Shown here: positions 7,074-45,237 of the stretch, piece by piece
Layout of the letters: every line of letters starts with the position of its first letter
How positions within the stretch are numbered: position 1 is the stretch's first letter
Source of the DNA: an uncultured Actinomycetota bacterium
Lineage (GTDB): Bacteria > Actinomycetota > Actinomycetes > JAFAQI01
Assembly: GCA_963770565.1 (NCBI GenBank)
Contig: CAVYQE010000011.1
Coordinates: 768,001 to 832,000 of the forward strand
Length of the DNA: 64,000 nucleotides
Direction of reading: 5' to 3'
The notes under the pieces: model-generated
The model's input: the letters and a program-made list of their open reading frames with translations, nothing else
What the model was told of the DNA's origin: nothing
Database searches by the model: none
Translations under genes and position numbers: made by a program

Positions 7074-7257
7074 CGCTTCCGCAGGCCAGGGGGACCGGCA
7101 GCTCAGAAGACCGCGAAATCGGATTGTCGAAATTCAAACGGATCGCCGGCTGTAGCACCTCCCACCTGCGGCTTTGCGCGGCCGGATGATCCTCGGCTGC
7201 TCACTGGTCGCTCGGAGTGGGCCGAACGACCGTGACCGACCGGCATCCACCGGAAGC
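7074..7257 (+). repeat. att-like junction A (most degenerate copy)
   Basis: TTCCGCAGGCCAG; degenerate core GGATTGTCGAAA (7121-7132); arm pair GGCTGCTC/GGTCGCTC at 7195 and 7206. Aligns by eye with 35521-35720. Confidence 0.65.
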
Positions 7258-7352
7258 GCGGTCGGGGCCGACGGACTTGGCCGTGCCTCCCGCGAGCGAC
7301 CGTCAGCACGCTCAGCGATCCTGCGTTGTTTGACACGCCGCTTACAGGGGAG

Positions 7353-7392
7353 TTGACTGCCGCCGGATAATAGTTCGAATCATGTACAAAGA
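7353..7392 (+). promoter_or_regulatory. xylA promoter and probable ROK-XylR operator
   Basis: TTGACT -35 at 7353; imperfect palindrome TAGTTCGAATCATGTACAAA resembling ROK XylR sites, directly upstream of xylA. Confidence 0.5.
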
Positions 7393-7403
7393 GTGGGGCG
7401 CTC

Positions 7404-8564
7404 ATGACGTCGACGTACCAATCCGCTCCTGAAGACAGGTTCAGCTTCGGGCTGTGGACGGTCGGTTGGCAGGGGGTCGACGTCTTCGGCCCTGCAACAC
7501 GTCCGGCGATGGATCCGGCTTATGCGGTGCACCGGCTCGCCGAGCTCGGAGCCTGGGGCGTCTCATTCCACGACAACGACGTCTTCGCGTTCGACGCCGA
7601 CGAGGACACCCGCGGCAAGGCGCTCGCCAGCCTCCGCAAGGCGCTTGAAGACACCGGCCTGGTCGTTCCGATGATTACCACCAACCTCTTCAGCCATCCG
7701 GTCTTCAAGGATGGCGGCTTCACCAGCAACGACCGCCGAGTACGCCGCTTCGCCCTCGCCAAGGCGGCGCGCAATATCGATCTCGCCGTGGAGCTCGGCG
7801 CCTCGACCTTCGTGATGTGGGGCGGTCGAGAGGGCGCCGAGAGTGCGTTCGCTAAGGACATCAAGGCGGCCCTGGACCGCTATCGCGAGGGCGTCAACCT
7901 GCTGTGCAAGTACGTCCGCGAGCAAGGCTACGACCTGCGCTTTGCCATCGAGCCGAAGCCCAACGAGCCGCGCGGCGACATTTTGCTCCCGACGATCGGG
8001 CACGCGATCGCCTTCATCGACTCCCTCGCCCACCCGGAGATGGTCGGGGTCAACCCTGAGGTGGGTCACGAAGAGATGGCCGGCCTCAACTTCGCGGCCG
8101 GCGTCGCCCAGGCGCTGTGGCACGGCAAGTTGTTCCACATCGACCTCAACGGTCAACACGGCCCGCGCTTCGACCAGGATCTTCGATTCGGCGCCGGCAA
8201 CTTGCGGGGCGCATTTGCTCTCGTCGACCTCCTCGAGTCCAGTGGATACCAGGGGCCCCGCCACTTCGACTTCAAACCTTCACGCACCGAGGACGAGGTG
8301 GGTGTCTGGGCCGCCGCTGCGGCCTGCATGCGCAACTACCGAGTCCTCCGCGAGCGCTCGAAGTCCTTCCGTGCAGACCCGGACGTTCAGGCCGCCTTAC
8401 AGCGCTCCGGCCTGGTCGAGCTCGCCACACCGACTCTCGCCGAAGGCGAAACGCTGGCGACTCTTCGCGCCGAAAGCCACCCAATCGAGGAGATGGCAGC
8501 GCACGGCTTCGCGTTCGAGCAACTCGATCAGCTAGCCATGGACCACCTGTTGGGGCTGCGCTGA
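7404..8564 (+). CDS. xylA: Xylose isomerase (class I, actinobacterial)
   Basis: [46 protein letters not shown] motifs. Confidence 0.97.
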
Positions 8565-8574
8565 GGCCCTGAGG

Positions 8575-9975
8575 ATGCCATTAGTGGCAGGTGTCGACTC
8601 CTCGACGCAATCCTGCAAGGTTGTCGTCCGTGATGCCGAGACAGGTCGACTTATCCGCCAGGGCGCTGCCCCGCATCCCGATGGCACCGAGATCGATCCC
8701 GAGCACTGGTGGACCGCACTCCAGAGCGCAGTCGCACAGGCCGGCGGGCTCGATGACGTCGCGGCCATTTCCGTCGGCGGCCAACAACACGGCATGGTCT
8801 GTCTTGACGAGACTGGACGGGTGGTACGCCCGGCGCTGCTGTGGAACGACACTCGCTCGGCGAGTGCCGCCGCCGACCTGACAGCGGAGCTGGGCGCCGG
8901 CGAGTGGGCGCGGGCAGTGGGTTCGGTGCCGGTCGCCTCCTTCACGATTACCAAACTGCGCTGGCTGGCCGAAAATGAGCCAGCCAACGCTGCGTCGGTG
9001 GCGGCGATCGCCCTCCCGCATGACTGGCTCACCTGGCGTCTGGCCGACCACGGCACGGATGGCAGCCTCGACACCCTTGTCACCGACCGGTCGGATGCCT
9101 CCGGAACGGGTTACTGGTCTCCGGCAACCGGTGCCTACCGCGTCGACCTGCTCGAGCGCGCACTGGGGCGCGCCGACGTGTTGTTGCCCAGAGTCCTAGG
9201 CCCCGCCGATGCCGCGGGCCGAACCCCGTCGGGAGCCCAACTCGGCCCCGGCTGCGGTGACAATGCCGGCGCTGCGCTCGGGCTGGCTTCCGCACCCGGC
9301 GACGTGATCCTCTCCATCGGCACCTCGGGAGTCGCCTGCGCCGTCACCACCGAGCCGACCGCCGATGCCACCGGGACGGTTGCCGGGTTCGCTGACGCCA
9401 CCGGAAATTTCCTGCCGCTTGTCGCCACCCTCAACGCCGCCCGCGTGCTCGCAGCGGTGGCCTCGCTCTTGGGTGTGACCATGGACGAGTTCTCCCGCCT
9501 GGCGTTGACGGCGCCCGGCGGTTCGGGCGCACTGGTACTCGTGCCCTATCTCGAAGGCGAGCGGACGCCGAACCGTCCCGGAGCCAAGGGAGCTCTGCAC
9601 GGGCTCACGCTGCACACCGCGGATCCTGCGTATCTCGCCCGCGCCGCCGTGGAAGGTCTCCTGTGCGGGCTGGCCGACGCACTCGATGCGTTGGTCGGCC
9701 AGGGCGTCGAGATCGAGCGCGTCGTGCTTATTGGCGGCGGTGCGCGCTCGACGGCCGTTCGCCGGATCGCGCCGGCGGTGTTGGGTCGGCCGGTCGTCGT
9801 ACCGGCTCCGGGGGAGTACGTCGCCGACGGAGCCGCTCGACAGGCGGCCTGGGTCGTAGCCGGGGCTGCCGAACCACCGGCATGGAAGCGCGTCGGAGAC
9901 GAGACCTACGACGCTCCCGCGGAGCCATCGGTGCGAGAACGGTACGCCGAGGTCCGTGACCTGACTGAGAGGTGA
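8575..9975 (+). CDS. xylB: Xylulokinase (FGGY)
   Basis: [42 protein letters not shown]; follows xylA. Confidence 0.95.
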
Positions 9976-10033
9976 GGGAAGGGTCGATCAGCCGAACCTT
10001 GGCGCCGACGTGTCGGGAGCTGCAGCCGGCGCT

Positions 10034-11239
10034 TCAGGTCGCCGCAGCTAGGAGCGCGCAACTCGGATCGTCGAGGAGCGCAGTGAACGCCAGTTCGGCA
10101 GCGCCGATCAGCGCGGAGTCCTGACCGAGCTTGCTCGGCACGAGGGCGACATCCGATCGAGGAAGGAATAGGGCCTGACCTTCCAGGACCGCCTCGACCT
10201 TCTCCCCCAGGCCGCCCCAGAGCTGCGACATGGTGCCCCCTATCACGATGACCTGCGGATTGAACAGGTTGATGATCGTGCGAAGCCCAACACCGATCGA
10301 CTCCGTTACCTCGTCGACGGCGGCCATGGCACGATCGTCGCCCCCGGTAGCGGCAGTGATCACCTCTGCGACCGCCGCGGGGCCACCGCCCACTCGCCTG
10401 CCGGCGAGCGCGAGCAGCCGGTTCTCGCCGACGTAGAGCTCCCAGCATCCGCTGGACCCGCACCGGCATTGCGGCCCCGACGGGTCGATCTGGATATGCC
10501 CGACCTCACCGGCATACCCAGCGGCTCCCTCAAGCAGCTTGCCGTCGACCAGAAAGCCGCCGCCGATACCAATGTTCGCGGCCAGATAGACCGCGTGGTC
10601 GTAACCCACCGCGGCACCCCGCAGGTGCTCTGCCACCATTCCGAGGTTGGCATCGTTCCCAGTCCGAACCGGGCGGCCGAGACGCCGCGATATGAGGTCG
10701 GTAAACGGCTCGCCGTGCCAGTCAAGGTTCGGTGCGGAATGCACCATCCCGTCACTGCTCCGCACGGCGGCGGGTACTGAAGCAGCCACCGCCAGGAAAC
10801 GACCCGGCGGGGCTACGTTGAGTATCTCCTCGGCCATCGTTGCTGCCGTCTCCACGACATGCTGCACGTCATGCTTGCCCCGTCGATGCGGGCGGACCCG
10901 TCGCTCGAGCACCGTCCCACCGAGTCCGACCAGAGCGACCTGGAGACGGTCGACCCCGACGTCGATCGCGATGACGTAGTTCTCCGAGCGCGGCAAGACC
11001 AGATGGGACGGCCGGCCGCTTCGGACATGGCGATCCTCGGCCGATGGTGGCCGCTCGTCGACGAGGCCGAGCTCGACCAGGTCTGAGGTCAGGCCGCCGA
11101 TCGTGCTGCGGCTGAGCCCGAGGCTCCTGGTCAGTTCGGCCCGACTGATCGGGCCGCGAGCGTGCACCTCGTGCAGCATCGCTCGAAGGTTCGTCCGACG
11201 CAGCTCTTCGATCCCCGACACCGTGGCCAATCGGGCCAT
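10034..11239 (-). CDS. xylR: ROK-family transcriptional repressor (XylR-like)
   Basis: N-terminal HTH SRAELTRSLGLSRSTI, GRP, NDAN, GEVGH, CRCGSSGCWE zinc motif. Start placed at ATG 11239. Confidence 0.88.
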   Translation of the reverse strand: MARLATVSGIEELRRTNLRAMLHEVHARGPISRAELTRSLGLSRSTIGGLTSDLVELGLVDERPPSAEDRHVRSGRPSHLVLPRSENYVIAIDVGVDRLQVALVGLGGTVLERRVRPHRRGKHDVQHVVETAATMAEEILNVAPPGRFLAVAASVPAAVRSSDGMVHSAPNLDWHGEPFTDLISRRLGRPVRTGNDANLGMVAEHLRGAAVGYDHAVYLAANIGIGGGFLVDGKLLEGAAGYAGEVGHIQIDPSGPQCRCGSSGCWELYVGENRLLALAGRRVGGGPAAVAEVITAATGGDDRAMAAVDEVTESIGVGLRTIINLFNPQVIVIGGTMSQLWGGLGEKVEAVLEGQALFLPRSDVALVPSKLGQDSALIGAAELAFTALLDDPSCALLAAAT

Positions 11240-11246
11240 GATGATC

Positions 11247-12503
11247 TCAGATCCTGCCGGTGGCGCTCGCTCGTCGACGGCTGATGGCGTCAACGCTCGC
11301 GGCAAAGAGCAACACGATGCCGGTGACGAGATAGACGACCCCCGAGGACTTGTTGAGCAGCAGCATCCCGTTGTCGATGACGGCGATCACCGTGCCGCCG
11401 ATGAGAGCATCCACGACGCGGCCCTTGCCTCCGAACAGGCTCGTGCCACCGATGACGGCGGCGCCCACCGCGTACAGAAGCGTCTGCGACCCACCCGTCG
11501 TGGGTGACACCGAATTGTCACGACTGGCGATGAGAATGCCCGCGATGGCCGCCACCGTGGACGAAACCATGAAGCAACTCAGTCTGACCCATTCCACGTT
11601 GATGCCGGCGCGACGCGCAGCCTCCGCGTTGCCGCCGACTGCATACACGTGACGGCCCCATGCCGTGCGGGTCAGCCCGAAGTTCAGCACCAGCATCAGA
11701 CCGATGATGATGACCATGACGACCGGTACGCCTTTGAGCGATTGCAGCTTCGGGTTGACACTGCGTTCACCCGACAGCCAGCCCACCACTCCCAGCGCGA
11801 TAACGGCAACCAACGTGGACTTGGTGGCCCATTTGATCAGTGGCTCGTAGGAGAGGCCGGACCGGCGACGCCGACGATTCGCGAGCAGTCCACCGCCCGC
11901 GTAAGCGGCCACGAACGTGATGGCGACCAGCCAACCGAGCCAGATTGGGACGTTGTCGTTGTTCAACGCGAGGATGAACTTGTTGGCGAACCCGATCGTG
12001 CCACCCTCGCCGATGATGATCAGCAGCACGCCCTGTAATCCCAGGAACGCAGCCAGTGTGACTACAAAGGATGGAATGCCGAGCCTGGCGACCAGCGTTC
12101 CGAGGAACCAGCCGATCGCCGCGCCGGTCGCAAGACAAGCGATCAGTGACGGCACCAGCGGCCATCCGTGGCGAGTGAGCACGACTCCCAGAACGGCAGC
12201 CGCGGTCCCACCCGTATATCCGGCTGAGAGGTCGATCTCACCCAACAGCAAGACGAAGACCAGGCCCATCGCCAGCACGGTGACGCCGGCTTCCTGGCTG
12301 ATCAGGTTGGCGAAGTTGAGCTCCGAGGTGAATGTCCCCGGGCGCAGCGCCGAGAACAACGCGACGAGGACGATCAGGCCCAGGATGGCCGGCAACGAGC
12401 CGACCTCGCCGCCGCGGATGCGGTGGACGTAGTCCTTGAGGAGGCTGCCGATGGTGGGTTGTTCGTCGCTGGCGTCGACCGTCTCGACGGTTTCGGTGCT
12501 CAT
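11247..12503 (-). CDS. xylH: Xylose-type ABC transporter permease
   Basis: GEIDLSAG, IPSFVVTLA, YAVGGNAEAARRAGINV, AVIGGTSLFGGKG. Confidence 0.88.
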   Translation of the reverse strand: MSTETVETVDASDEQPTIGSLLKDYVHRIRGGEVGSLPAILGLIVLVALFSALRPGTFTSELNFANLISQEAGVTVLAMGLVFVLLLGEIDLSAGYTGGTAAAVLGVVLTRHGWPLVPSLIACLATGAAIGWFLGTLVARLGIPSFVVTLAAFLGLQGVLLIIIGEGGTIGFANKFILALNNDNVPIWLGWLVAITFVAAYAGGGLLANRRRRRSGLSYEPLIKWATKSTLVAVIALGVVGWLSGERSVNPKLQSLKGVPVVMVIIIGLMLVLNFGLTRTAWGRHVYAVGGNAEAARRAGINVEWVRLSCFMVSSTVAAIAGILIASRDNSVSPTTGGSQTLLYAVGAAVIGGTSLFGGKGRVVDALIGGTVIAVIDNGMLLLNKSSGVVYLVTGIVLLFAASVDAISRRRASATGRI

Positions 12504-13294
12504 CGCTCGGCGCCCATGCGTCCGGTGGTAATCGCGGTGACGATGTGTTCGCGGTTGGAGTCCTTAGTCGTGACCTGACCGGCCATCTCACCGAGATACA
12601 GCACGGCGATGTCATCGGCGATCTCGAAGACCTCGTTGAGGTTGTGGCTGATCAGCACGACGCCGAGGCCTCGGTCAGCCAGGCGACGCACGAGCCTGAG
12701 AACCTGCTCGGTCTGCGCGACACCAAGCGCCGCTGTCGGCTCATCGAGGATGACGACCTTAGAGTTCCAAAGCACCGCGCGTGCGATCGCCACCGTCTGG
12801 CGCTGACCACCCGAGAGTGCCGCTACGTTGGTACGTACCGAGCTGAGCGTCCGTACAGACAAACTGTTCAGCGTCTCCCGGGCGCGGACTTCCATTGTGT
12901 CCTCGTCGATGAGGCCACGACTCTTGAGCTCCCGTCCGAGGAACATGTTGTGGACCACGTCGATGTTGTCGCAGAGTGCGAGGTCCTGGTAGACGATCTC
13001 GATCCCCAGGGCGTTGGCGTCTCGGGGGTTGTGCACTCGCACCGGCTGGCCTTCGAACAGGTATTCGCCGTCGTCGAAGGGGTAGATGCCTGCGATGCCC
13101 TTGATGAGAGTGCTCTTGCCCGCCCCATTGTCTCCGACCAGCGCGGTCACCACGCCGGGGTAGATGTTCAGGCTGACACCGCGGAGCACGTGCACCGCAC
13201 CGAAGCTCTTGTGCACGTCGCGCAACTCGAGAAGCGGCGCACTTGAGGCATCACGGCCTTCATGCTCACCCGCCGCAGCTGCCGTGACGGTCAC
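12500..13294 (-). CDS. Sugar ABC transporter ATP-binding protein (single domain)
   Basis: GDNGAGKST, LSGGQRQ, ILDEPT; GTG start at 13294 with GAAGGAGG RBS. Confidence 0.92.
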   Translation of the reverse strand: MTVTAAAAGEHEGRDASSAPLLELRDVHKSFGAVHVLRGVSLNIYPGVVTALVGDNGAGKSTLIKGIAGIYPFDDGEYLFEGQPVRVHNPRDANALGIEIVYQDLALCDNIDVVHNMFLGRELKSRGLIDEDTMEVRARETLNSLSVRTLSSVRTNVAALSGGQRQTVAIARAVLWNSKVVILDEPTAALGVAQTEQVLRLVRRLADRGLGVVLISHNLNEVFEIADDIAVLYLGEMAGQVTTKDSNREHIVTAITTGRMGAER

Positions 13295-13331
13295 AGAGCC
13301 TCCTTCGTGATTGATCGGTTTCGTGCCTGAA

Positions 13332-13360
13332 GCCGGGGCCCGCATGTTGCGGACCCCGGC
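13332..13360 (-). terminator. Intergenic stem-loop after the solute-binding-protein gene
   Basis: GCCGGGGCCCGCA-TGT-TGCGGACCCCGGC inverted repeat. Such hairpins commonly stabilise or attenuate transcripts in ABC operons. Confidence 0.55.
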
Positions 13361-13418
13361 CGACCAGGCAGCGTCGGCTCCGGTAAAGACCCTAAGGCCT
13401 GGGGCCGACCGGCACGAC

Positions 13419-14588
13419 TCAGGACGTCGGCACGCCGTACTTCCTGCACAGCTTGGCGAACGAACCGGCGCAGACCTGCGAGGCCTGCTCCTGGCCATCC
13501 TGGATAACCTTCTTGACTTGACTGCGGGTGACCCAGACCGGCGTCTCGAGCACTGAAGGAACCGAACGGTTCAGCGTGGTGTCCTCAGTGTGGCCGTTGA
13601 CCAGGCTGTCCGCTGCGGCCTTGTCGCCCTTGATCAGGTCGATCGCGAGCTTCGAAGCGGCGTTGGCCTCAAAGCTCGTGTTCTTGTAGACGGTCCCGCA
13701 CTGGTAGCCGGCAAGAATGTTGTCCAGACCCTCGACGCCAGCGTCCTGGCCAGTGATCGGGATCTTCCCGGCCACACCCTCGGCCTTCATACGGGCGATG
13801 ATGCCGCCGGCCATGGTGTCGTTGGCAGAAAGAACGCCATCGATCTTGCCCTTGGCCTGGGTGTACATCTGCTCGTAGACCGTGCCCGCCGTGGTGGCGT
13901 CCCAGTTGCCGGATTGCTCGCCGACCTTGTGGTAGGCGCCGGAACTGAACTTCGGGTCGAGGACGGACAGGTACCCCTGCTTGAACAGCGCTGCGTTGTT
14001 GTCGGTGGCCGCGCCGTCGACGATGGCGATGTTGGCCTTCGACTTGCCCTCGGCAGTGAGGCAGCTGACGAGGCCCTGACCTTGCAGCTTCCCGACCTCG
14101 ACGTTGTTGAAGGACACGTAGTAGTTGGCGTTCCCGCCCAGGGTGAGGCGGTCGTAGTCAATCGTCTGGATCCCGGCTGCCTCTGCCTTCTTCTCGCATG
14201 CGGAGCCAGAGTTCGAGTCGAGGTTCACGATCATGAGTACTTTGACGCCCTCGTTGATCATGCTGTCGCAGATATTGCCGAACTTGCTCTTGTCGCCCCC
14301 GGCATTCTCGATGTCAGACTTGAGGCCCGCTGCCTGGAACGCCTTCACCAGGTTGGGGCGGTCCTGACCCTCCCACCGAGGCGAGCTCGTTGTGTCGGGC
14401 AGGATCATTCCGACGTCAGCCTTGCTGGAGGTCGGGGCGCTGCTCGCAGGGCTGCCGCTGCTCGCGGGGCTGCCGCTGCTCGCAGGGCCGCTGCCGCTAC
14501 TACTGCTGCCGCAGCCGGCCAGCATGCTGATCGCAAGCGCCCCTGCAGCAACGAGGACGCCAGTGCGCCCGCTTCCGCTCATTTTCAT
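13419..14588 (-). CDS. xylF: Xylose-type ABC substrate-binding lipoprotein
   Basis: Lipobox LAGC, SSPRW..DRP, IDYDRL, YVSFNN, SANDTMA, ITGQDA. An 18-bp x3 tandem repeat (14439-14492) encodes the SGSPAS linker. Confidence 0.88.
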   Translation of the reverse strand: MKMSGSGRTGVLVAAGALAISMLAGCGSSSSGSGPASSGSPASSGSPASSAPTSSKADVGMILPDTTSSPRWEGQDRPNLVKAFQAAGLKSDIENAGGDKSKFGNICDSMINEGVKVLMIVNLDSNSGSACEKKAEAAGIQTIDYDRLTLGGNANYYVSFNNVEVGKLQGQGLVSCLTAEGKSKANIAIVDGAATDNNAALFKQGYLSVLDPKFSSGAYHKVGEQSGNWDATTAGTVYEQMYTQAKGKIDGVLSANDTMAGGIIARMKAEGVAGKIPITGQDAGVEGLDNILAGYQCGTVYKNTSFEANAASKLAIDLIKGDKAAADSLVNGHTEDTTLNRSVPSVLETPVWVTRSQVKKVIQDGQEQASQVCAGSFAKLCRKYGVPTS

Positions 14589-14640
14589 TCCGTTGGCCTC
14601 CGTTGCTCCAGCACCATCGCGTGACGGGTGTCACCGTGAT

Positions 14641-14657
14641 TGTTTCGAGCGCTAACA
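14641..14657. promoter_or_regulatory. LacI-family operator-like site
   Basis: TGTTTCGAGCGCTAACA has the central AGCGCT and TAACA half-site of LacI-type palindromes; upstream of xylF and of the LacI remnant. Confidence 0.5.
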
Positions 14658-14826
14658 TAGGGCAGTCGTTCGTACGGCACAAGACCCTGGCCGCACAAAC
14701 TCAGCTCGCTGTCAACTCCATGTCTCGCCGTACCGGGCCGTTGCGGGCCCGCCACATTGTCAGCCTGCCAAGGAGCTGACAGGTAGGGCCGAAGGTCACA
14801 ACCCTGTGCCGGGCATCGGTGAAGTG

Positions 14827-15352
14827 CAGGTTCGATACGACACGCTGGGCGGGAGCAGTCATCTGCTTGACCAAGGCCACATGGTGGTGCAGCATGTGCG
14901 CGGACCACAAGGCTGGATTGAGGCCGACGCGAGAAGCGGCTTGGCGGGTCGAGTTGCGTCGCAGGCGCATCTAGGCGCCACGGCGATCTGTCGGCGACTG
15001 GACGGCGCGGTCCGTCTAGGAGATCGGGCGCCTATTGGCCGGGGAATTGGACGTCGACGCGGTCTGTGTCGCGAACCATCAGATGGCGATCGGCGTCCTC
15101 CGCGCGCTCGCCGAAGCCGGCCGGATGGTGGCGGACGATGTGAGTGTCGTCGGCTTCGACGACGGCGCCGAGGCAGAGTGTCTCGTCCCGCCGCTGTCGA
15201 TGGTGCGACTCGACTTCTGCGCTGTCGGCCGCGCCGCGGTCGGTCTCTTGCTCTGCCTGGTCAACAGCGATGAGCGTGACGGGCATGTCGTCGCGCCGAC
15301 TGAGCTCGTCGTCCGGACAAGCAGCATTCGTGACCACGATGCGCGCGACTGA
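14827..15352 (+). pseudogene. LacI-family regulator remnant (no HTH, frameshifted)
   Basis: HLLDQGHMVVQHVRGPQGWIEADAR in one frame; AVCVANHQMAIGVLRALAEAG..DDVSVVGFDD..PTELVVRTSS in another. Confidence 0.8.
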
Positions 15353-16607
15353 GCCGATGCACAACTGGGCGGGAAATGTCCGGTACTCCGCGGCCGAACT
15401 GGTCACGCCGCGATCATTGGGTGACCTTCAGGACATCGTGGCGAAGGCGAGCCGCGTGCACGCAGTGGGCTCCCGACACTCCTTCTCTCGAGTCGCGGAC
15501 ACGGAGGGCGAGCTGGTCGACCTCAGCGAGCTTCCGCAGTCTGTAGAAGTCGACGCCGCTCGCGGCACCGCGTCGGTCGCAGCTGGGATGAGCTACGGCG
15601 ATGTAGCGCTCGCGTTGCACGACCAAGGCTGGGCGCTCTCCAATCTGGCGTCGCTGCCTCACATCACCGTTGCTGGCGGGTGTGCGACGGGGACTCATGG
15701 CTCGGGGGATGGGAACCAGGGCCTGGCTGCTGCAGTGCATTCGATGACGGTTGTCGGGCCGGACGGCGAGCTCCACGAGATGGTGGGGGAGCGCGATCAA
15801 CCGAGGTTCGCCGCGGCCCGCGTTGGTCTTGGCGGCATGGGGATCGTCGCGGAACTGGTCCTGTCCATCGAGCCGACGTACGACGTCGAACAACGGGTCT
15901 ACGAGGATCTGCGGTTCGATGTCGCGATCACGAATCTCGACGAGGTGATGGCAAGCGCGTACAGCGTCAGCCTCTTCACGGACTTCTCGGCACCACGTTT
16001 CACCCAGGTCTGGCGTAAGCGACGGATCGAGCCGGGGGAACGTCACGATTGGCCGACGCGATGGTTCGGCGCGACCGCTGCCAGCGCGCCGCGCCACCCG
16101 GTACCTGGCGCCAACCCCGAGCACTGCACGGTGCAAGGCGGCGAGCCCGGCCCGTGGTTTGCGCGGCTCCCACACTTTCGCTGGGACTCTCCGCCGAGCG
16201 CGGGAGCTGAGCTACAGACCGAGTACCTCGTCGACCGGACGCATGCACCAGCGGTGTTCACTGAGCTCCGGGCGCTCGCACCCGAGATCTCCGCAGTCTT
16301 GCGAGTTTGTGAGTGTCGGAGTATCGCCGCCGACGATTGCTGGCTCAGCCCGGCATATGGTCGTTCGACGATCGGCTTCCACTTCACCTGGCAGCCGGAG
16401 CTGTCAGCGGTGTGGCCAGTCCTCGCGGCGATCGAGCGCCGGCTCGAGCCTTTCGGCCCGCGACCACACTGGGGCAAGCTCCATCGATTTCCTCGGGAAC
16501 GACTCGTCGCGGTCTATCCGCGGCTTAACGACTACAACGCCGAGCGTGTTCGCTTCGACCCTGATGGTGTGTTCTCCAACGCCTCCCTCGAGCGTCTGTC
16601 GGCATGA
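15339..16607 (+). CDS. FAD-linked alditol/xylitol oxidase (AldO-like, VAO family)
   Basis: NWAGN, GSRHSF (covalent FAD His), NLASLPHI, TGTHGSG, YSVSLFT, RLPHFR, ELQTEY, RPHWGK. Confidence 0.88.
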   Translation: MRATEPMHNWAGNVRYSAAELVTPRSLGDLQDIVAKASRVHAVGSRHSFSRVADTEGELVDLSELPQSVEVDAARGTASVAAGMSYGDVALALHDQGWALSNLASLPHITVAGGCATGTHGSGDGNQGLAAAVHSMTVVGPDGELHEMVGERDQPRFAAARVGLGGMGIVAELVLSIEPTYDVEQRVYEDLRFDVAITNLDEVMASAYSVSLFTDFSAPRFTQVWRKRRIEPGERHDWPTRWFGATAASAPRHPVPGANPEHCTVQGGEPGPWFARLPHFRWDSPPSAGAELQTEYLVDRTHAPAVFTELRALAPEISAVLRVCECRSIAADDCWLSPAYGRSTIGFHFTWQPELSAVWPVLAAIERRLEPFGPRPHWGKLHRFPRERLVAVYPRLNDYNAERVRFDPDGVFSNASLERLSA

Positions 16608-17521
16608 CGAGCCTTCCCAGCGGGCAGCAGTTCGAGCTCCGGTACCAGGACCAAGCCGCGGTCGTGGTGGAGGTCGGTGGCGGAGTCCGTCGATATTCGG
16701 CTGGCGAGCGTGAGGTCATCGATGGGTACGACGCAGGTCAGGCGTGCGATGGGTTTAGAGGCCAAACACTCGTCCCTTGGCCAAATCGGGTACGCGATGG
16801 GAGGTGGCGTTACAACCGTGTCGCACTGCAACTGGCAATCACCGAGCCCGCGCGCCACAACGCAGTCCATGGCCTAGTCCACGACGTGCCGTGGGCCGTG
16901 ACCGACCGAAGCGACGCCTCAGTAACCCTGAGCGTGACCCTGGTGCCGCAACCTGGATATCCATGGAGGCTCCAAGTGAGCAACGCTTGGAGGATTGCCG
17001 AGAACGGGCTGTCCGTCTCCACGATCATTACCAATCGCAGTGACACCGCTGCGCCGGTCGCCGCCGGCTTCCACCCATACGTGCAGGTCGGGACAACCTC
17101 CATCGATGACGCAATGCTCACCGTCCCGGCACAGACCCGGATGCTTGTCGACCAGCAGCAGATACCAATCGGTACCGAACCAGTCGCAGGCTCAGCGTTC
17201 GACTTCCGGGAGCCCCGCCAGATCGGCAATCTCCACATCGACCACGCCTTCACCGACCTGCGGCGTGATTCCGACGGGCGCTGCCGACTTCGCCTGACTG
17301 ACGCCCGAGGCGGATCTGGGATGACGCTGTGGGCCGATGAGGCCTACCCATATTTTGAGATCTTCACCGGTGACACATTGCTGGATGCCTCCCGGCGGCG
17401 CCGCGGGCTTGCCCTCGAACCGATGTCGGCGCCACCCAATGCCTTGGTCACTGGCGAATCACTCGTGGTACTCGAGCCGGCGGAGCGATGGATCGGGACC
17501 TGGGGAATCGACCCCGACTGA
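16604..17521 (+). CDS. Aldose 1-epimerase family protein
   Basis: LVPWPNRVRDG, HG, GYPW, GFHPY, ALEPM; ATGA overlap with the oxidase gene. Confidence 0.88.
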   Translation: MTSLPSGQQFELRYQDQAAVVVEVGGGVRRYSAGEREVIDGYDAGQACDGFRGQTLVPWPNRVRDGRWRYNRVALQLAITEPARHNAVHGLVHDVPWAVTDRSDASVTLSVTLVPQPGYPWRLQVSNAWRIAENGLSVSTIITNRSDTAAPVAAGFHPYVQVGTTSIDDAMLTVPAQTRMLVDQQQIPIGTEPVAGSAFDFREPRQIGNLHIDHAFTDLRRDSDGRCRLRLTDARGGSGMTLWADEAYPYFEIFTGDTLLDASRRRRGLALEPMSAPPNALVTGESLVVLEPAERWIGTWGIDPD

Positions 17522-17676
17522 TCCAGCGATCTGCCTGGCCGCGCAGGGCCGCGGGCGGCATCAAGTCTTGCCCGGTGGGCCGCTCCTGCTTTGCTGCTCC
17601 GTGGCCGTCCGGGATGAAGCGGACCGCCCATGGGTTGTTGCGGAACCGGTTCCGGGAGCTAAGCACGCGTTAGTGG

Positions 17677-18336
17677 ATGGCTGGCACGATGTTTCGACCG
17701 CGGGCGCTGCGAACCATCGCCGCGAGCCGCGGCGACCTACTGCCAGGCGTCCACGGTGATGTGTACGACACGGCGGCGCTGACCGAAGACAATGAGCTGA
17801 CCCTCGCCATCAAGTCCCTTGGAGGACTCATGGTGTCCCCCGACGGCTGCCGGGTGGTCACCGAACTCATGCCCACCTGGCGCAACCTGTGGACCCAGCG
17901 CCTCCGCTGGCAGCGCGGCGCCCTGGAGAATCTTGGCGCCTACGGACCGTCCCCGACCATGCTCCGTTACTGGGCCCAGCAGCTCGGCATCGGCTACTCG
18001 GTCATTGCACTCAGTACATTCTGGTTGTTCATCCTCGTCACCGCGCTCGTCACGGACCAGTGGGTTTGGTACCCGTTCTGGATCTGTGTGGGAAGCCTGT
18101 TCGTCGCCGATCGGGTCGTCAGCGCCTGGCGCGGCGGATGGAAGGCACGTCTGCTCGCGGGGCTGCTGATCCCCGAGCTTCTGTACGACGTCTACCTCGA
18201 CGTCGTCTACGTCAAGGGCATCTTCGACATCACCTTCGCTCGCGACACCAAGTGGGGTCATGTTGCCCACGCCTCGCAAACCACCCATGAGACCAACGCG
18301 ACCCAGCAGCGCGAAACCGTCAGGGGCACCTGGTGA
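17677..18336 (+). pseudogene. Processive GT2 glycosyltransferase, C-terminal fragment
   Basis: LTED and QRLRW motifs plus TM helices; the N-terminal DxD nucleotide-binding half is absent. Confidence 0.7.
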
Positions 18337-18557: not shown

Positions 18558-18705
18558 CGGGCTTTGTATGCGGCACACGACCTACACCGAGCCGAGCGGC
18601 TTCGACCCGTCCACGGTGTCGACGGCGGCCGACCAGCTACGGCTGCCCCGGGCGCCCGCACTCAGGTTGACGGTCCTCGGGTGGGGGACAAGCGCTAGCG
18701 CGGGG

Positions 18706-22776: not shown

Positions 22777-22784
22777 GCGCCCGC

Positions 22785-34796: not shown

Positions 34797-35294
34797 ATGG
34801 TGATCATCCACGGTACGCAACGGTTCCGGGATCGAATGGCCGCTGCTCCTGCGAATGAGGGTGATGTCTCGACGTCGACTCTCGGGTCGTGGTACGCGAC
34901 CGTGCTGCGCTGGCGTCCAGCGGTCGCGTTGTTCGTGAACGCCTCCACACTGTTGCCGGTGTTCACCCAGTTCGCCCCGACCCGGACCCTGCTCGACCGG
35001 TTCCCGGTCGCTGTCGGCGAGGTTCTCTCGGCCCACGGCGTTCCGCCCGCGGTGATCGCGACGGAGACCGCGGCGATGTCAACGTGCCGCGTCGCACCCA
35101 CCAGGAACCGCAGCGTGGTCGGAACGATGAACGACTTCAGCTTCCTTGCCGACCACCACCGAGCCGACTTCTCCGGCGAACTCGTCGAGTTGTCGGTGCG
35201 GCTGGCGGAAACGCCTTGCAGCCCGCTGTACAAGAGGCACATCAGCCCCGACCGGGAGTTGGCCGCGATGATCCAGAGGCACCTCGCCACCTGA
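34797..35294 (+). CDS. DUF6933-like protein
   Basis: IIHGTQ, LGSWYA, LFVNASTLLPV, TRNRSVVGTMND. Confidence 0.7.
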   Translation: MVIIHGTQRFRDRMAAAPANEGDVSTSTLGSWYATVLRWRPAVALFVNASTLLPVFTQFAPTRTLLDRFPVAVGEVLSAHGVPPAVIATETAAMSTCRVAPTRNRSVVGTMNDFSFLADHHRADFSGELVELSVRLAETPCSPLYKRHISPDRELAAMIQRHLAT

Positions 35295-35354: not shown

Positions 35355-35850
35355 GCGCTGGTTGCTCTCTGGTTGCTCGCAGAAGAGAAGGCAGCCTCCG
35401 GATCGCGGAGCTGGCGATGTCTAGACGACTGTTTCTGCAGGTCAGAGCGTTGTCGGCGTCAGCGCGGCGGCTGACGCCTGGGTTGCTGCACATAAGAGCG
35501 AACTGCTTGGCGCCAGAGCTGCGTTTCCGCAGGTCAGACCCATGATCAACGATCTTGAGAAACCGGCTCTTAGATGTCGTAAATCAGCCGAGATCGCTGG
35601 TCTGTATGCGCCTCACCCGCGGTGTTACAGCCGCGGACGATCTTCGGTTGCTCCCTGGTTGCTCTCGGAAGGCAGAGCGACCGGAACGGCCCGGCAGCGG
35701 CCGGTCTTTTCCGGAAGCCCGCAACCACGCTCTTGGCGATGCGACCAGTCTCCCGGTTGCTCGTCAGTTGCTCGCGCTTCAGTCCTCGATCGCCCGACCA
35801 GCTCGACGCGGGACCTTTGATTTCTCCTCGGTTGCTCGGGGCGCTAGCGC
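35355..35850 (+). repeat. att-like junction F (complete, with extra arm copies)
   Basis: GGTTGCTC at 35360/35371; GCAGGTCAG x2; core TTAGATGTCGTAA (35570-35582); GGTTGCTC at 35646/35657; further copies at 35755/35766 and 35830. Confidence 0.88.
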
Positions 35851-38242: not shown

Positions 38243-38270
38243 CGCCGGTCTCGTGGGTCACGACAACTAG

Positions 38271-39884
38271 CCTCGCCATTTCGTGATCTTGGTGCTCGAC
38301 ACGGGTTGTGGATGCACGGAAGTGCCTGTCCTGCTTGGGAAACTTGGGCTTGCGATGGACCAAGTTAGGCCGAGCGGGAAGGCACTCCGTGGGTGAAGGG
38401 TAGCCGAGGCAGGAGACGGGTTCGGGTAGTCGCGGGCGACGAGCTGTTGGTGTCGTCGTCGGGGGCGTCGCTGCTGGTCGAGACCAGCCGAGCGACCGGC
38501 CTTGATCGGGAGTTATCGAGGGCGCTGCGCCCGTGGCGTCGACCGCGGGCTGAGCACGATCCGGGCAAGGTTCTCGTCGATGTCGCGCTCGCGGTCGCAC
38601 TCGGTGGTGACTGCCTGGCTGATCTCGCGGTGGTCCGCGCGCAGCCGGACCTGTTCGGTGCGGTGGCGTCCGATCCGACGGTGTCGCGGCTGATCGACAC
38701 CCTCGCTGGGGATGCCGACGCCGCGGTCGCTGCGATTCGGGCGGCTCGCGCCGCGGCTCGGGCGACGGCCTGGGGTCACCGTTGCCCGGTCGGTGACGAC
38801 GGGCCGGTGATCGTGGATCTGGACGCGACGATCGTGTGCGCGCACTCGGAGAAGGAGGGTGCGACGCCGACGTTCAAACGCACGTTCGGGTTCCATCCGC
38901 TGCTGGCGTTCGTCGACCATGGCGTGGACGGCACTGGTGAGCCGTTGGCGGCGTTGCTGCGGGAAGGTCGCGCGACCGCCAACGACGCCGGTGATCAGAT
39001 CGCGGTGCTCGACGCCGCGCTCACCCAGCTGCCCGAGCAGGTCCGAAGCCGGGTGTTGGTGCGCGGCGACACCGGCTCCGGGGTGCACGAGTTGCTGCAC
39101 CATGTCACTGATCTTGGTTTGGAGTACTCGGTCGGAATCTATGGCCGTCAGCCCGTGCTGGACGCGCTCGCTGCGACACCACGACGCGCGTGGCGGTCCG
39201 CGATCGACGTCGACGGCCAGCCACGCGAGGGCGCGCAGGTCGTGGAGGTCACCAGGCACCTGCCCGACACCTTCATCGGCTGGCCGGCTGGGATGCGGGT
39301 CATCGCTCGCCGGGAACGCCCGCACCCGGGCGCGCAGCTACGGATCACCGACGACGACGGCTGGCGGATCACCGTGTTCGCGACCAACACCAAAGGCGGG
39401 CGGATCGCCGAGCTGGAGCTGCGGCACCGGCAACGCGCCCGCGCCGAAGACCGCATCCGAGGGCTCAAGGACTGCGGGCTGCGCAACCTACCGCTGCACG
39501 AGTTCGCCAAGAACACCGTCTGGCTCGAGCTTGTCGGTCTCGCCGCCGAGCTCCTGACCTGGACCCAGACGCTGGCGTTCACCGGCAGCATCGCGCGCTT
39601 GTGGGAACCGAAACGACTACGACTTCGCGTCCTGCACGTCGCCGGCCGGATCGTGACGACCAGCAGACGGAACTGGCTACGGCTGCCCCGCGGCTGGCCC
39701 CGGCGCGACCTGATCAGCAACGGTCACGCCAGCCTGCACGCCCTAACCTGAGCCACCACCCCAACCCCGACGACCAACCGGACAGGCGGCGCAACGAACG
39801 CCGCAGTTCGACAACGCCCACCACCGACACCGCCCACCACACTCGTGGAATCACCAATACCACCAAGATCACGAATGATCGAGG
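38271..39884 (+). mobile_element. IS1380-family insertion sequence
   Basis: Terminal inverted repeats CCTCGCCATTTCGTGATCTTGGTG / CACCAAGATCACGAATGATCGAGG; CTAG duplicated at 38267-38270 and 39885-39888. Confidence 0.93.
38393..39751 (+). CDS. IS1380 DDE transposase
   Basis: VASDPTVSR, DLDAT, GFHPL, LVRGD, HRQRARAEDRIR, WEPKRLRLR. Confidence 0.95.
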   Translation: MKGSRGRRRVRVVAGDELLVSSSGASLLVETSRATGLDRELSRALRPWRRPRAEHDPGKVLVDVALAVALGGDCLADLAVVRAQPDLFGAVASDPTVSRLIDTLAGDADAAVAAIRAARAAARATAWGHRCPVGDDGPVIVDLDATIVCAHSEKEGATPTFKRTFGFHPLLAFVDHGVDGTGEPLAALLREGRATANDAGDQIAVLDAALTQLPEQVRSRVLVRGDTGSGVHELLHHVTDLGLEYSVGIYGRQPVLDALAATPRRAWRSAIDVDGQPREGAQVVEVTRHLPDTFIGWPAGMRVIARRERPHPGAQLRITDDDGWRITVFATNTKGGRIAELELRHRQRARAEDRIRGLKDCGLRNLPLHEFAKNTVWLELVGLAAELLTWTQTLAFTGSIARLWEPKRLRLRVLHVAGRIVTTSRRNWLRLPRGWPRRDLISNGHASLHALT

Positions 39885-42800
39885 CTAGCCGATGACCTTT
39901 CGCGCCTCGTCGTCCTCGAATGGGTTGTGGTTGTTCGGGGTCGAGTTCGGATCCCGCTGCCCGGCCTTGATCAACTCCGCGGTGGCGGTGGTCGGCAGTT
40001 TGCCCTTGACCACAAGCACGAGACTGAGGGTGACGGTCTTCTCACCGCCGATCGTCCGCACCACCCAGTGGCCGGACGACTTCTGAAACTTGCCGCTGCT
40101 TGCCTTCGCCGATTTCAGTGTCAGACCTCGGGGGACCTTCACCGATACGACGTCCCCAGTCGCGGCGAGCGGATAGGAGTCGTGCAAGGACACCGTCAGG
40201 TGAAGGAGCTTGCCCTTCTTGGCCTTACCCGTGACCTTCATCGTGATGTTCAGGTCTCGCTCCTTGATCAGCGATACGCATGCCTTCCCGATCCCCTTGA
40301 CGCTGCTCGATGCCTGGCTGTGGTTGGAAACGGTTGGGCAGTTGTCCTTGGTATTGACAATGCCGTCATGGTCGGCATCGGCACTCATGGCCTGTTGCCA
40401 CGGATCGATGCCTGGCTCGGTCGAGGTCGAGGCGTCGCTGGTGTCAGCGCGCGCGTGCGCCGCCGATTGTGGGGCCCACGCCCAAGAGTCGACTAGGACT
40501 GGTACCGGCGTGTACTGGAGGCCGGCCCAGTCATCGTGGCTGGTCAACTGGCTGCCCACAGGCACGGGGCTCGAGCAACCGTACGCACCTGAATCGTCCG
40601 ACTGGGACTCGGTGACAGCAGATGTGTCGATCCTGCCGTTGTCGTTCCAATCGATCGGCGTGAAGATTGACGCGGCCAGGAGCCCGCAGCTGCCGGCAAC
40701 GACGTTACCGGCGGAGTTTCGAGTGGGTCCCTGGTAAACAGTCGTCGTCCAGTCGCCGAGCGTGTCCCTCTTCACGGTGCCGGCGATCGCGGCGTTCTCG
40801 TTGAGTGCGCCCTCGTTGAGGCTGGGAAGCGAAGCGCGCGAGTAGTCGAGCGGACGGTTGGGCACGACGTCGCGGTAGAGAAGGTTGTAGTTCATGACAC
40901 TCAGGTAGTTCGGCTTGAAGTTCGTGTCGTCACCGCCACCGTGATGCAGCCCAAGGGTGTGGCCGAACTCGTGCATCATGGTGGCCGCTTGGACTTGCGC
41001 AAGGCAGCTGGCGTAGTCGGTGCACTGGGTTGGCCAGCCACCAGCGACAGCGATGGTTCGCGGCATTCTGAGTGCGTTCGGGTCGCGGCTGCTTCTCATC
41101 GCCGGTCCGAGTGTGATCACCGCGGTTCGGCCGGCGATGTCCGCCTCGCCGGTGACGTTCGGGCCGCCACTCATGGCGTCGCCAAAGAAGATGTAGCGCC
41201 AGATCATGTGCTTAGCGCCGAGAATCTGCCAACAATCTGACGAGTTGCGATCCTCGAGGGACCCAAACACACCGGCGCAGTCGCGGTCGCCATCCCGGAT
41301 GTCGATCAGCTGACTCTGGGTCATCGCATGCTCGCCCGGGCGCGGGCTGACCTCGTCGTCGCTGAGCTTCTCGTCATCCGTGGTCGCACCCAGGTGCAAA
41401 CGGATGCCGGTGTGAGACGGGTCGTTCGTCGCGCTCACCGGGCTGTCTGCAAACGCCTCTTGTACGTCGACAAGCGCCTGCTGCTTCGGTGCGAAGCCAC
41501 GGTAGTAGTCAACCTCCGCAAACAGATCCCGCCGGGTTGGCGATGCGCCGTAGGCCTTGAGGTCGAGGTCGCTCTTGCCGTCTCCGTCAAAGTCGAGGCC
41601 TCGGGTCTCCCACTCGTCACAGATGCCGTCACCGTCAGCATCGTCCGAGGTCTGACCAGCCAGGGGCGCGCAGATCGGCGACACCTCTGAGGTGTTTCCG
41701 TCGGCATCTGTTGCCGTGGCGGAATAGCTGACGAAGACGCCGGGATGAGGGACACCGAAGTAGAACGTGCCGTCGGGCTGAACCGTGGCGGTACCCAACC
41801 AGACCGGCGCCGCGCCCCAACTGTCCACCTGATCCGCCGGCTGGGGATCCGCTGCGATCTGTCCAGCGCTCAAGCCGTAGATGTCCACGACTTCGGATGC
41901 GGTCGAGGCGGGCCGTGGGCTCAACGTCCCGGTGACGATGGTTCCGCCGTAGATGGGCAGTCCGGGGTTGTTCGGCTGGATCGTCGACATGACCGCCGTC
42001 GGGAAGTTGATCGCGCCGTTCGCTCCCTCATCGGCGTCGTGTTCATCGTTCGGTAGCGGCTCGTTCGCATCTACCGGCTTGTCGATGAAAGCGATCGGCA
42101 GCTTCGAGACGTCGAGGATCCAGTTGCCTCGAATCGTGTCGTCGTTCACCGTGCCGTCCAACGCGACGCCGTCGCCCGACGTATCAGCGATGATGTTGCA
42201 CGCGCCGGCGCATACGTCTTGCGGGGTCTGGTCGACCGAGTAGCCGATGACGTTGCCGGAGGCTTGGTTCGTCAAGCTGACACCACTGCCGCCAATGCCG
42301 ACCTTGTTGTCGCCGAGGATCCCGATGGCGTTTCCCTCGATCAGATTCTTCGTCGTGGCACTGCCGTCGAGTAGTACGCCGTCCTTGTTTCCAGCGACCA
42401 CGTTCCCGGAGCCGCTCGCCGTGCCACCGATGACGTTGTTCGGTGAGTTCTCGACCTGGATCGCGTCGTCGGAGTTGTGGAGCTTTCCGCTGCCTGCGGC
42501 ATTCGTGCCGATGTGGTTGCCGGAGACGGTGTTGCCGCCCGGACCGTCGAGGTGAATGCCGGCGCCACCGTTGCCCGAAATCACGTTTCCGGCAGTGCCG
42601 ACGCCGCCGATGGTCACGTTGCTGGGTGCGTCGGTGGTTGCCTCGTAAGGCTCGTAGTAGTAGCCGATACCAGGGCCGCCATTGCCCAGTCCCGGGTCGG
42701 AGTCGGGATCGGTCCCGATGTCGTTCGCTTGGATCACGTCTCCGGTATCCGCGGCACCGTCAAGCCGCAACCCGTCGTGCTTGTTGCCGGAGATCACGTT

Positions 42801-44078: not shown

Positions 44079-44179
44079 GAGTAGACCCCATTCCTCATCG
44101 CGATCAGCCCGGATCGACGGCTTCGCTCACTGCGGACTGTTGCATAGCCGCAGTCGCGAGGTCCGAGACTCCCGCCATC

Positions 44180-44566
44180 TCAGCCGTCGTACCCTGCCAC
44201 GGATCGCCAGTGGACTCGCGCTTCTGCGACCTCAACGGCAACAAGCAATCTGGCAGAGGATGGCCTCCAACGCTCACCACAGGCCAGATCGGGACAGCCC
44301 TCCCAGCGAACCGCGTAGACGTCATCTGACCCGGCGAAGGGCGTGCGATAGAGCGCGATCTTGCGCTGCGCGGATGAGTGCGCGTCGGCGGGTCCTTGGT
44401 TGCCGACGAACAGGGCGTCCTGCGATGGATCATCCAATACGACGGAGCCGCCGGTGATGCCGAGTACGCGATGAAGTCTTGAGTTCTCAGCCTTGACTGA
44501 CGCGAGCTCGGCGCGAAGTCTCGCGATCTCGTCGGCGGCGCTGATCGCGCCTGTGGCTTCACCCAT
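44180..44566 (-). pseudogene. Truncated second copy of the AEP-helicase gene (N-terminus only)
   Basis: ARLRAELASVKAENSRLH..PSQDALFVG..RKIALYRTPFAGSDDVYAVRWE matches the start of 20416..22776, then similarity stops. Confidence 0.85.
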
Positions 44567-44582
44567 GTGCCAGTTCGCCGTC

Positions 44583-44937
44583 CTACCTCTTGAGTCGGTC
44601 GGCACAACACTTGGCTCTGGCAACCACTCGATCCAGGAGGATGGACGGCAGCGGGCTGTCGAGTTCGGTGATGCTCGGGGTCGGCGCGCACGGTGGCGAA
44701 CGCGTCAGGTGCGACCTCGCACATCGATTGAACTTGGGCCAGCAGTTGGTCGGCGTCGACACGCAAGGCGGAGGCGGCATCGATCCAATCGTCGGCGTTG
44801 ATCCGCGGTGCCGGGTACTTGCCACCAACCTTCATCGCGAGCTTGATCTTCGGTTCGTAGAAGTCGGGATACGGCAGTGCGCTGCCGATTACGTAGAACG
44901 GCGCCAACCTCACCTGCCGACCTGACAGCAACAGTGC
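44583..44937 (-). pseudogene. HipA-like kinase toxin C-terminal remnant
   Basis: LLLSGRQVRLAPFYVIGSALPY..KLAMKVGG matches the HipA RLAPxYD region; frameshift near 44680; cut off at att arm G. Confidence 0.75.
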
Positions 44938-45237
44938 ATCTTGGTTGCTCTGTGGTTGCTCCCAGAATATTTCAGCGGCCAACTCAACCGCATGAGGACA
45001 CCGCGGGGGACTGCGTTTGTGCAGGTCAGGGCGCTCTCCTGGCGCTAGACGGCGCGGTTGCGCTCTACTTCAACAAAAGGGCGAACTCAGTCGGCGAGAA
45101 GAGCATCTCCGCAGGTCGGGGGCATGATCAACGATCATGAAAAACCGGGGCTTAGATGTCGTAATAGAGCGCGAGGAAGGGCTCTGATCTGGATGTACAC
45201 CCTCCGCAGCCGCCGGCCGGGGCACAACTGGGGCACA
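44938..45237 (+). repeat. att-like junction G (left arm, core, different right arm)
   Basis: GGTTGCTC at 44943/44954; GCAGGTC x2; CATGATC-AAC-GATCATG; core TTAGATGTCGTAATAGAGCGC (45152-45172); GGGGCACA pair at 45219/45230. Confidence 0.88.

Follow-up and report, generated by a model that had tools for sequence, protein, structure and literature searches.

How does one stretch of a bacterial genome come to hold a series of composite repeats, all lying between genes and all pointing the same way, with unrelated genes in the intervals? The question is raised by 64,000 nucleotides from an uncultured Actinomycetota bacterium of the lineage JAFAQI01 (assembly GCA_963770565.1, contig CAVYQE010000011.1, positions 768,001 to 832,000), a stretch that will be called the window. 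The genome to which it belongs, G000, measures 4.43 Mb in 11 contigs, and the contig that carries the array of repeats is referred to as C11. A sequence-only reading of the window had described seven copies of the repeat, A to G, that resemble attachment (att) sites and run from 7.1 to 45.2 kb, and had regarded the intervals as units that lost their integrases, added at the right-hand end and functioning like an integron with very large cassettes. The analysis presented here leads to a related but narrower answer: the repeats are, with high probability, the attachment-site junctions of tandem integrative islands that entered successively at the 3' end of glnA, the gene for glutamine synthetase.

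A composite repeat at one locus

At full length the composite consists of a pair of octamers GGTTGCTC repeated directly with an 11-bp period, a core TTAGATGTCGTAA, and a second pair of the same octamer. The octamer occurs 22 times in the window against 2.62 copies expected, a count that none of 100 shuffled sequences reached. When the pair was searched for in the whole genome as GGTTG[CT]TC-N3-GGTTG[CT]TC, exact or variant, eight pairs were found, all of them on the plus strand between window positions 20332 and 44943, with 15 of their 16 octamers being exact GGTTGCTC; with up to two mismatches allowed, 11 of the 13 genome matches lie in the window (7195-44943), again all on the plus strand. 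Two profiles were also run over the genome with nhmmer, one (m1) made of the first pair, about 170 bp, and the core, and the other (m2) of about 75 bp, the second pair, and about 60 bp. Full-length m1 is present only at E, F, and G (E values of 9e-91 to 8e-82), with a partial match at B, while the matches to m2 (6e-34 to 4e-11) are limited to B, C, D, E, and F and a weak one at A. Neither module occurs outside C11:775-813 kb or on the minus strand, so that the recurrence of one composite in one orientation, as first described, holds for the entire genome, and the repeat is not scattered over it on both strands as repetitive extragenic palindromic (REP) sequences or miniature inverted-repeat transposable elements (MITEs) would be.

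The internal geometry is exactly as the sequence-only reading gave it. The first pair lies 210, 210, and 209 bp before the core in E, F, and G, the second pair 75, 75, and 76 bp after the core in B, E, and F, and GCAGGTCA and TGACCTG motifs together with a CATGATC palindrome are found within the composite. The arms around the octamers are only 61-85% alike between copies, and the octamers themselves are perfectly kept. An alignment of nine copies of the left module (three from the window, four from three other genomes, and two from metagenome contigs) shows little or no change in the octamer pair, in GCAGGTCAG, or in the core, and variable flanks. About 60 bp ahead of the core region, seven of these nine left arms, including that of F, have a third arm-like site, GGTTGCTG, after which comes a conserved ACATAAGTGCGAAC; E and G lack this site. 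On one metagenome contig (L167) four tandem octamers stand in place of two. Scans with Rfam and for tRNA genes gave no match at the repeats. The small palindrome was also considered as a transcription terminator, a candidate that was rejected because in four GGTTGCTC-type copies it folds no better than shuffled sequence (z of -0.6 to -1.6).

The seven copies are real repeats, although they are not the equivalent members of one series that they had been taken for, and only E and F carry the whole composite. Copy E (30214-30591, plus strand) comprises a left pair at 30218-30236, GCAGGTCA motifs, the palindrome CATGATCAACGATCATG at 30399-30415, a core at 30428-30444, and a right pair at 30503-30521, and copy F (35356-35850, plus) a left pair at 35360-35378, a core at 35570-35582, a right pair at 35646-35664, and further near-pairs at 35755 and 35819. 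Both are attP-like junctions between tandem elements, in which a left arm is followed by a core and by the right arm of the next element. Copy G (44939-45237, plus) is a hybrid: its left pair at 44943-44961 is of the GGTTGCTC type, its core at 45152-45176 keeps about 23 nt of the glnA end, and the right pair at 45219-45237 reads GGGGCACA-N3-GGGGCACA, so that the left arm is joined to the arm of a different element type. Copy B (20208-20420, plus), with a conserved flank, the core AGATGTCGTAAT at 20259-20270, and an m2 module with its pair at 20332-20350, has no first pair and is the far-left junction of the array. Copies C (24675-24767, pair at 24679-24697) and D (26245-26361, pair at 26273-26291), both on the plus strand, are orphan right arms of the m2 type with no core, the former being followed by a PIN/FitA toxin-antitoxin pair. 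Finally, copy A (7074-7277, plus) holds a decayed core-like stretch, a decayed remnant of the glnA end, and at 7195-7213 a degenerate pair, GGCTGCTC-N3-GGTCGCTC, with two mismatches (m2 match with E = 4.2e-11). It sits in an unrelated 10.8-kb segment, 6855-17686, that is missing from the same-genus genome G003, and is a displaced, decayed fragment, not a clean member of the array.

To the right of G lies a further unit, H, that had not been counted. It is 26.4 kb long and runs from G to glnA (C11:839598), with its first 18.8 kb in the window (45165-64000). Because matching repeats stand at its two ends, namely a GGGGCACA pair at C11:813219 and, beside glnA, GGGGGCACA in four copies at C11:839450-839491, unit H appears to be a unit of another element type that spans the whole interval, and a search with a 12-mer of the core found no internal core in it. 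Measured from core to core, the units are 10.2, 5.1, 9.6, and 26.4 kb long. The island therefore does not extend from 7.1 to 45.2 kb, as first proposed, and instead reaches from B (20.3 kb) to glnA (71.6 kb), or from 20271 to the window-equivalent position 71598, which is about 51 kb.

This anatomy bears on the simplest alternative, that the composite is a dispersed repeat of the REP or MITE kind, or a tandem duplication that arose locally and was spread through homologous recombination. Events that were not site-specific did take place, as the orphan arms C and D show, and a 30-nt part of the composite around the palindrome (GCAGGTCAG..CATGATCAACGATCATG..) is found beside a tRNA-Met gene, beside tRNA remnants on other contigs, and in many relatives. 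Yet the composite modules occur at this locus only in 4.43 Mb and on one strand, the units between them carry unrelated cargo, G joins the arms of two element types precisely at the core, and the tRNA-linked palindromes, where repeats of tRNA 3' ends lie 8.1 kb from each other, resemble att regions that belong to related elements. A dispersed or duplicated repeat is thus hardly credible here.

Probable integration at the end of glnA

Read on the opposite strand, the core TTAGATGTCGTAA gives the closing codons of glnA together with the stop (...YYDI-stop, written TATTACGACATCTAA), and the cores in the window are copies of the last 13-25 nt of this gene. It was identified through relatives, in which m1 lies directly 3' of a 480-aa gene assigned by Pfam to glutamine synthetase; in G004, G017, G005, and G009 the left module adjoins the 3' end of glnA, and homology to the window stops at the core. 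In G000 itself glnA is found at C11:839598-841025 on the minus strand, 26 kb to the right of G and about 7.6 kb past the right end of the window (window-equivalent 71598). A whole-genome search with the core 12-mer, with at most one mismatch, gave nine matches, five of which, at window positions 20259, 30430, 35572, and 45154 and at glnA (C11:839597), are co-oriented. The array is accordingly bounded by glnA at one end, and direct repeats of the glnA end flank its units. Two more distant glutamine synthetase-like genes lie at C11:590937 and C11:119231.

Comparison with relatives was made with 36 genomes of the family, 38 of the order, and four of the same genus, and the regions downstream of glnA were read in 20 relatives. 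Module boundaries coincide with the cores, as the sequence-only reading had expected, and the breaks are sharp. Contig G003:C24 matches window positions 1-6854 (92% identity) and 17687-20277 (97%) and diverges right after ...CAGATGTCGTAA into an arm with GGATGT repeats; G001:C43 is 81% identical up to 20270, diverges at the core, and has a further core and GGATGT pair 5.8 kb on. Of the remainder of the window (20278-64000), the four same-genus genomes have only a PIN/FitA block in G002, an insertion sequence (IS) in G001, and matches of low identity (64-81%) that look like paralogues. Inside the array, block homology with relatives ends at the cores, at 30444-30449, 35582-35588, and 45174-45182, and in G005 homology over the DUF6933 gene and m1 ends at the core of F. 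The m2 module with its PIN/FitA block is 78-84% identical in G002, G005, G009, and G017. Within the family and order genomes, GGTTGCTC pairs are held by G002, G004, G005, G009, and G017, with G007 added by the exact pair; in a wider genome collection, the loci listed for the exact pair, at least 119, are mostly unrelated, and none has the composite.

What an undecayed member of such a series looks like can be seen in G010, where a 13.2-kb element lies intact at glnA with a 405-aa tyrosine integrase (Phage_int_M and Phage_integrase domains) directly downstream of that gene. At both of its ends stands the end of glnA, GTACTACGACATCTAG, as a perfect 16-bp direct repeat. On the integrase side a pair AGCAAACG-N3-AGCAAACG is separated from this repeat by about 105 bp, and towards the far end another such pair lies at a distance of about 60 bp from it. 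The order is hence glnA, GTACTACGACATCTAG, AGCAAACG pair, integrase, remainder of the element, second AGCAAACG pair, GTACTACGACATCTAG, a layout that is that of m1, core, and m2 with a different octamer. G011 has the same arm beside glnA, and its integrase is 90% identical to that of G010. Other repeats with an 11-bp period occupy the same position in 5 of the 20 glnA downstream regions, where the motifs are AGCAAACG (G010 and G011), AACATCC (G001), TGTGCCCCC in four copies (G003), and GTGCGCCA (G024), and the arm sequence goes with the element type. Several glnA regions, for example those of G015, G016, G026, and G031, have none of these motifs and look like empty sites. The far flank of the G010 element shares no synteny with G000 and so does not help to place the far end of the array.

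These relatives also bear on a second alternative, in which the octamer pairs would bind a transcription factor of the direct-repeat kind, for example of the OmpR type, and the composite would be the duplicated promoter region of a regulon. An 11-bp direct-repeat period is typical of winged-helix response regulators, and the pair in G010 stands just upstream of the integrase start, where it could also act in regulation. Against this, the pairs keep a single orientation regardless of gene direction, and minus-strand genes have their 3' ends next to B, C, D, and E. The core, moreover, duplicates the end of glnA, homology with relatives breaks exactly there, and the repeats bound element-sized units and change in sequence with the element type. 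Operators are, in our estimation, a very improbable explanation.

The preferred explanation, tandem integration at glnA, can be formulated as follows. Each element would have carried an attP in three parts. Its left arm would hold, about 210 bp from the core, a pair of 8-bp sites with an 11-bp period, accompanied by GCAGGTCA motifs and a short palindrome; its core would match the final 13-25 nt of glnA exactly, which would let integration rebuild the end of the gene; and in its right arm the octamer pair would recur at 75 bp from the core. A heterobivalent tyrosine integrase of the lambda/L5 type would bind both the core and the arm sites and recombine attP with the glnA end. As each newcomer would use the core proximal to glnA, older elements would be pushed to the left, with the attP-like hybrid junctions E, F, and G formed between neighbours, and later decay may have removed the integrase genes, left the orphan arms C and D by deletion, and an IS may have inserted. 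The present units would then resemble cis-mobilizable elements (CIMEs), that is, att-flanked blocks of cargo with no recombinase of their own. We infer this order of integration and decay events from the arrangement of the copies. The anatomy and the glnA-end core support the first proposal of att junctions of tandem elements of the lambda/L5 type, and polar growth at the right agrees with the position of glnA on that side and with the glnA-proximal unit, which is of a different type and whose left arm abuts G. By analogy with G010 and G011, on which the link between integrase and arm rests for the GGTTGCTC type because no integrase of that type was found, the octamers are predicted to be the arm-binding sites.

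No unit was found to hold an intact integrase, in agreement with the original description. Of 15 matches to PF00589 in the genome, 14 lie outside the window, and none falls in C11:812-841 kb, between G and glnA; the intact integrase that had been hoped for at the end of the array is consequently neither in it nor beside it. The single match in the window is a broken tyrosine recombinase remnant at 29673-30160 on the plus strand, the sole trace of its kind, which consists of the catalytic domain only, is truncated at the N terminus and frameshifted, and scores 36.2 bits with Pfam (37.6 bits at 29673-29975 in the genome scan). It is Xer-like and 79% identical at the DNA level to a broken gene at C2:463109-463590. 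Its position to the left of E made it a candidate for the integrase cognate to GGTTGCTC, which was rejected because of this Xer-like character and because its homology to the C2 copy ends at the end of the gene. A tblastn search with the integrases of G010 and G011 gave no match in the array, and outside the array the closest matches in the genome reach 27-35% identity.

Several observations weigh against tandem integration at glnA. An integrase for GGTTGCTC arms was found on none of the pair-bearing contigs of the six holder relatives, nowhere across the 36 family genomes, and on none of four metagenome contigs, three of which have the left module and one of these also the right module, and in a set of 64 viral contigs both the composite and relatives of the G010 integrase were absent. 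In the G010 integrase, about 80 residues precede Phage_int_M, where an arm-binding domain would be expected, and Pfam has no match in residues 1-100; there is likewise no PDB sequence match before residue 93. An AlphaFold model of residues 1-95 shows five short strands and a helix (predicted local distance difference test of about 90 for residues 11-60), and a fold search with it gave no PDB match at E<=0.001, the best having E = 0.27 and the N-domain of Tn916 Int coming at rank 43 with E = 1.3; residues 1-66, modelled with confidence as strands plus a helix, likewise gave no significant PDB match. To account for copies A, C, and D, additional deletions or illegitimate events have to be assumed, and the right end of the A-bearing segment falls inside a glycosyltransferase gene. 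The glnA of G000 is 90% identical in DNA to that of a relative, with eight gaps and several frame changes, so that it may be a pseudogene behind the island, or the changes may be indel errors of the assembly. Lastly, the genomes compared are mostly fragmented drafts, the contigs of which often end near glnA.

The missing integrase bears equally on the reading that comes closest to the integron idea, an active cassette system at glnA in which a dedicated integrase encoded elsewhere would excise, capture, and reshuffle satellite units through their GGTTGCTC arms. For it speak the concentration of all eight genome pairs at this locus with 15 of 16 octamers exact in arms that are otherwise only 61-85% alike, the 14 other PF00589 matches in the genome, the very small units seen in relatives (in G005, a unit of about 1.7 kb with PIN/FitA and DUF6933 lies between a right and a left arm), and the different combinations of PIN/FitA, DUF6933, and a 240-aa protein in G000, G002, G005, G009, and G017. 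On the other side, besides the cognate integrase that was found neither here nor on the pair-bearing contigs of relatives, no GGTTGCTC pairs accompany the genes of this genome that come closest to the G010 integrase. Perfect octamers amid arms that differ by 15-40% fit functional sites, and they are equally expected if the elements were functional when they recently arrived; copy A shows that sites decay once resident. Public reads are silent on excision, as all the joints recovered (low-depth contigs from four runs) have at most 24 letters on the shorter side and are unreliable. An active cassette system of this kind is therefore quite unlikely. A looser form of the idea, in which the units are a live pool of att-flanked modules (toxin-antitoxin, defence, and metabolic) moved between genomes and re-inserted at glnA by the GGTTGCTC-specific integrase of a rare helper element, is left possible by the perfectly kept arm sites, the units of about 1.7 kb, and the blocks differently combined across genera, and is also unlikely; if true, it would amount to a large-cassette counterpart of the integron in uncultured actinobacteria.

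Taken as islands accreted at glnA, the units trace 51 kb of variable DNA in an uncultured, soil actinobacterium-like genome to a single integration hot spot, the 3' end of this gene, for whose core at least five arm specificities compete in one bacterial family. The locus offers a natural series of att sites, intact, hybrid, orphan, and decayed, that is useful for annotating islands in draft genomes that break here, together with candidate integrase/att pairs such as that of G010. The literature searched, which did not extend to supplements, contained no report of the glnA 3' end as an integration target, and this is not proof that none has been published.

Cargo genes and neighbouring features

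The Pfam assignments show units with unrelated cargo and with many genes on both strands. In the first unit, a fusion of a TOTE-type archaeo-eukaryotic primase (AEP) with a helicase is encoded at 20416-22860 on the minus strand and is either cargo or a replication gene; it is 80% identical to a gene located 1.6 kb downstream of glnA in G006, and a 241-nt fragment of a relative of it is found at 44300-44540, to the left of G. This unit (20416-29591) is rich in defence and addiction genes, as it also has an AbiEi-like regulator, the PIN/FitA pair, and a 709-aa fusion of Fic and sulfotransferase domains. Between E and F, a protein of the excisionase family HTH_17 (32482-33201, plus) may be a remnant of a recombination module; its scores with HTH_17 (E = 3.8e-5, 24.3 bits against a cut-off of 27) and TIGR01764 of NCBIfam (E = 6.2e-6, 26.5 against 28.8) are both under the curated cut-offs. 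The DUF6933 gene of the same unit (34797-35294, plus, by Pfam) lies directly left of the left arm of F, an adjacency repeated in G005 (L015) and on one metagenome contig (L165).

The unit between F and G contains an insertion sequence at 38267-39888 (plus), with a DDE_Tnp_1_4 transposase at 38393-39751 and 28-bp terminal inverted repeats that are 86% complementary, which adjoins a gene for a 1397-aa surface-type protein with beta-helix and DUF11 domains. Unit H carries a histidine-kinase fragment, genes for an NADH-dehydrogenase/Mrp-like membrane complex, enolase, and ABC transporter genes, and at 55108-55188 on the minus strand a fluoride riboswitch scoring 34.2 bits against the Rfam gathering threshold of 34. 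No phage genes were found in the array, and no relaxase, FtsK-like, or conjugation genes among the unit proteins scanned, which did not cover every open reading frame.

To the left of the array, the segment 6855-17686 consists of sugar-utilisation genes (xylose-isomerase-like, FGGY kinase, ROK regulator, ABC transporter, FAD oxidase, and aldose epimerase), and an 18-bp tandem repeat in three overlapping copies (14423-14494) lies in the N-terminal part of a sugar-binding protein gene at 13419-14588. G003 has 1.8 kb in its place, with an FKBP-type isomerase and the start of a glycosyltransferase, and because the segment replaces this sequence the glycosyltransferase at 17677-18336 is truncated in the window.

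Near glnA, about 650 bp from it, a short inverted repeat GAAAACTGACCCC ... GGGGGTCAATTTTC is found at C11:838890-838960, and contigs G003:C24 and G003:C188 break at a sequence similar to it, which suggests a multi-copy IS or MITE. Draft contigs that end in or beside glnA, for example in G007, G013, G022, G023, and G039, fit repeated or variable DNA at this place across the family. Elsewhere in the genome, the 30-nt palindrome GCAGGTCAGGGCCATGATCAACGATCATGGCCCTG occurs at C2:142375, 155650, and 163749, C1:419472, C8:12844, and C10:170410. Over a stretch of 21 kb on C2 the sites come after a tRNA-Met gene and two incomplete tRNA 3' ends, and on C1 after a tRNA remnant, with an 11-bp-period repeat, ATGGGGACA, in two copies about 120 bp away; these tRNA-linked sites look like further integrase-less tandem islands with related att regions.

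Comparison with known systems

The array resembles integrons in its ordered, co-oriented units between recombination sites and in its growth at one end. The resemblance goes no further, and on none of the defining features tested does the analogy hold. The array has no intact integrase within it or next to it, and intI, attI, and Pc are absent; the junctions are double-stranded, attP-like sites of about 350 bp with arm repeats and not attC hairpins, and the units, of 5-26 kb, have many genes on both strands and regulators of their own.

Lambda Int is the paradigm of the heterobivalent tyrosine integrases, and the att sites described here have repeated arm sites to either side of the core, with a sequence unlike that of the core, in E and F (at -210 and +75 bp), in G010, and in unit H. 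According to a study of mycobacteriophage attP sites (PMC3203893), pairs of 11-bp arm-type sites flank a common core, and related integrases that share one attB differ in their arm sequences. The same source shows the likeness to the attP of L5, Giles, and Cluster K phages, in which the core overlaps the 3' end of a host gene and arm repeats of about 11 bp stand on both sides, in direct orientation in L5 and Giles. Unlike these, the array yielded no phage genes and consists of cargo islands, and binding to its arms is predicted from the sequence layout.

Tandem accretion of decayed elements is an already known process, and no new mechanism is revealed here. According to PMC5704250, tandem structures arise by integration, decay to a CIME, and entry of a further element at the att site carrying the target gene's end, with relatives of ICESt1 and ICESt3 at the 3' end of fda in Streptococcus thermophilus and pathogenicity islands of Streptomyces as examples. 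In contrast to these, the target is glnA, the host is an uncultured, high-GC lineage resembling soil actinobacteria, the units scanned have no conjugation or relaxase genes, and at least four units stand in a row together with orphan arms, none of them with an integrase. What the array shares with the CIME arrays of PMC5704250 is integration at the 3' end of a protein-coding gene, the loss of the integration genes with retention of the att sites, and chimeric att sites between neighbours that may encode different integrases.

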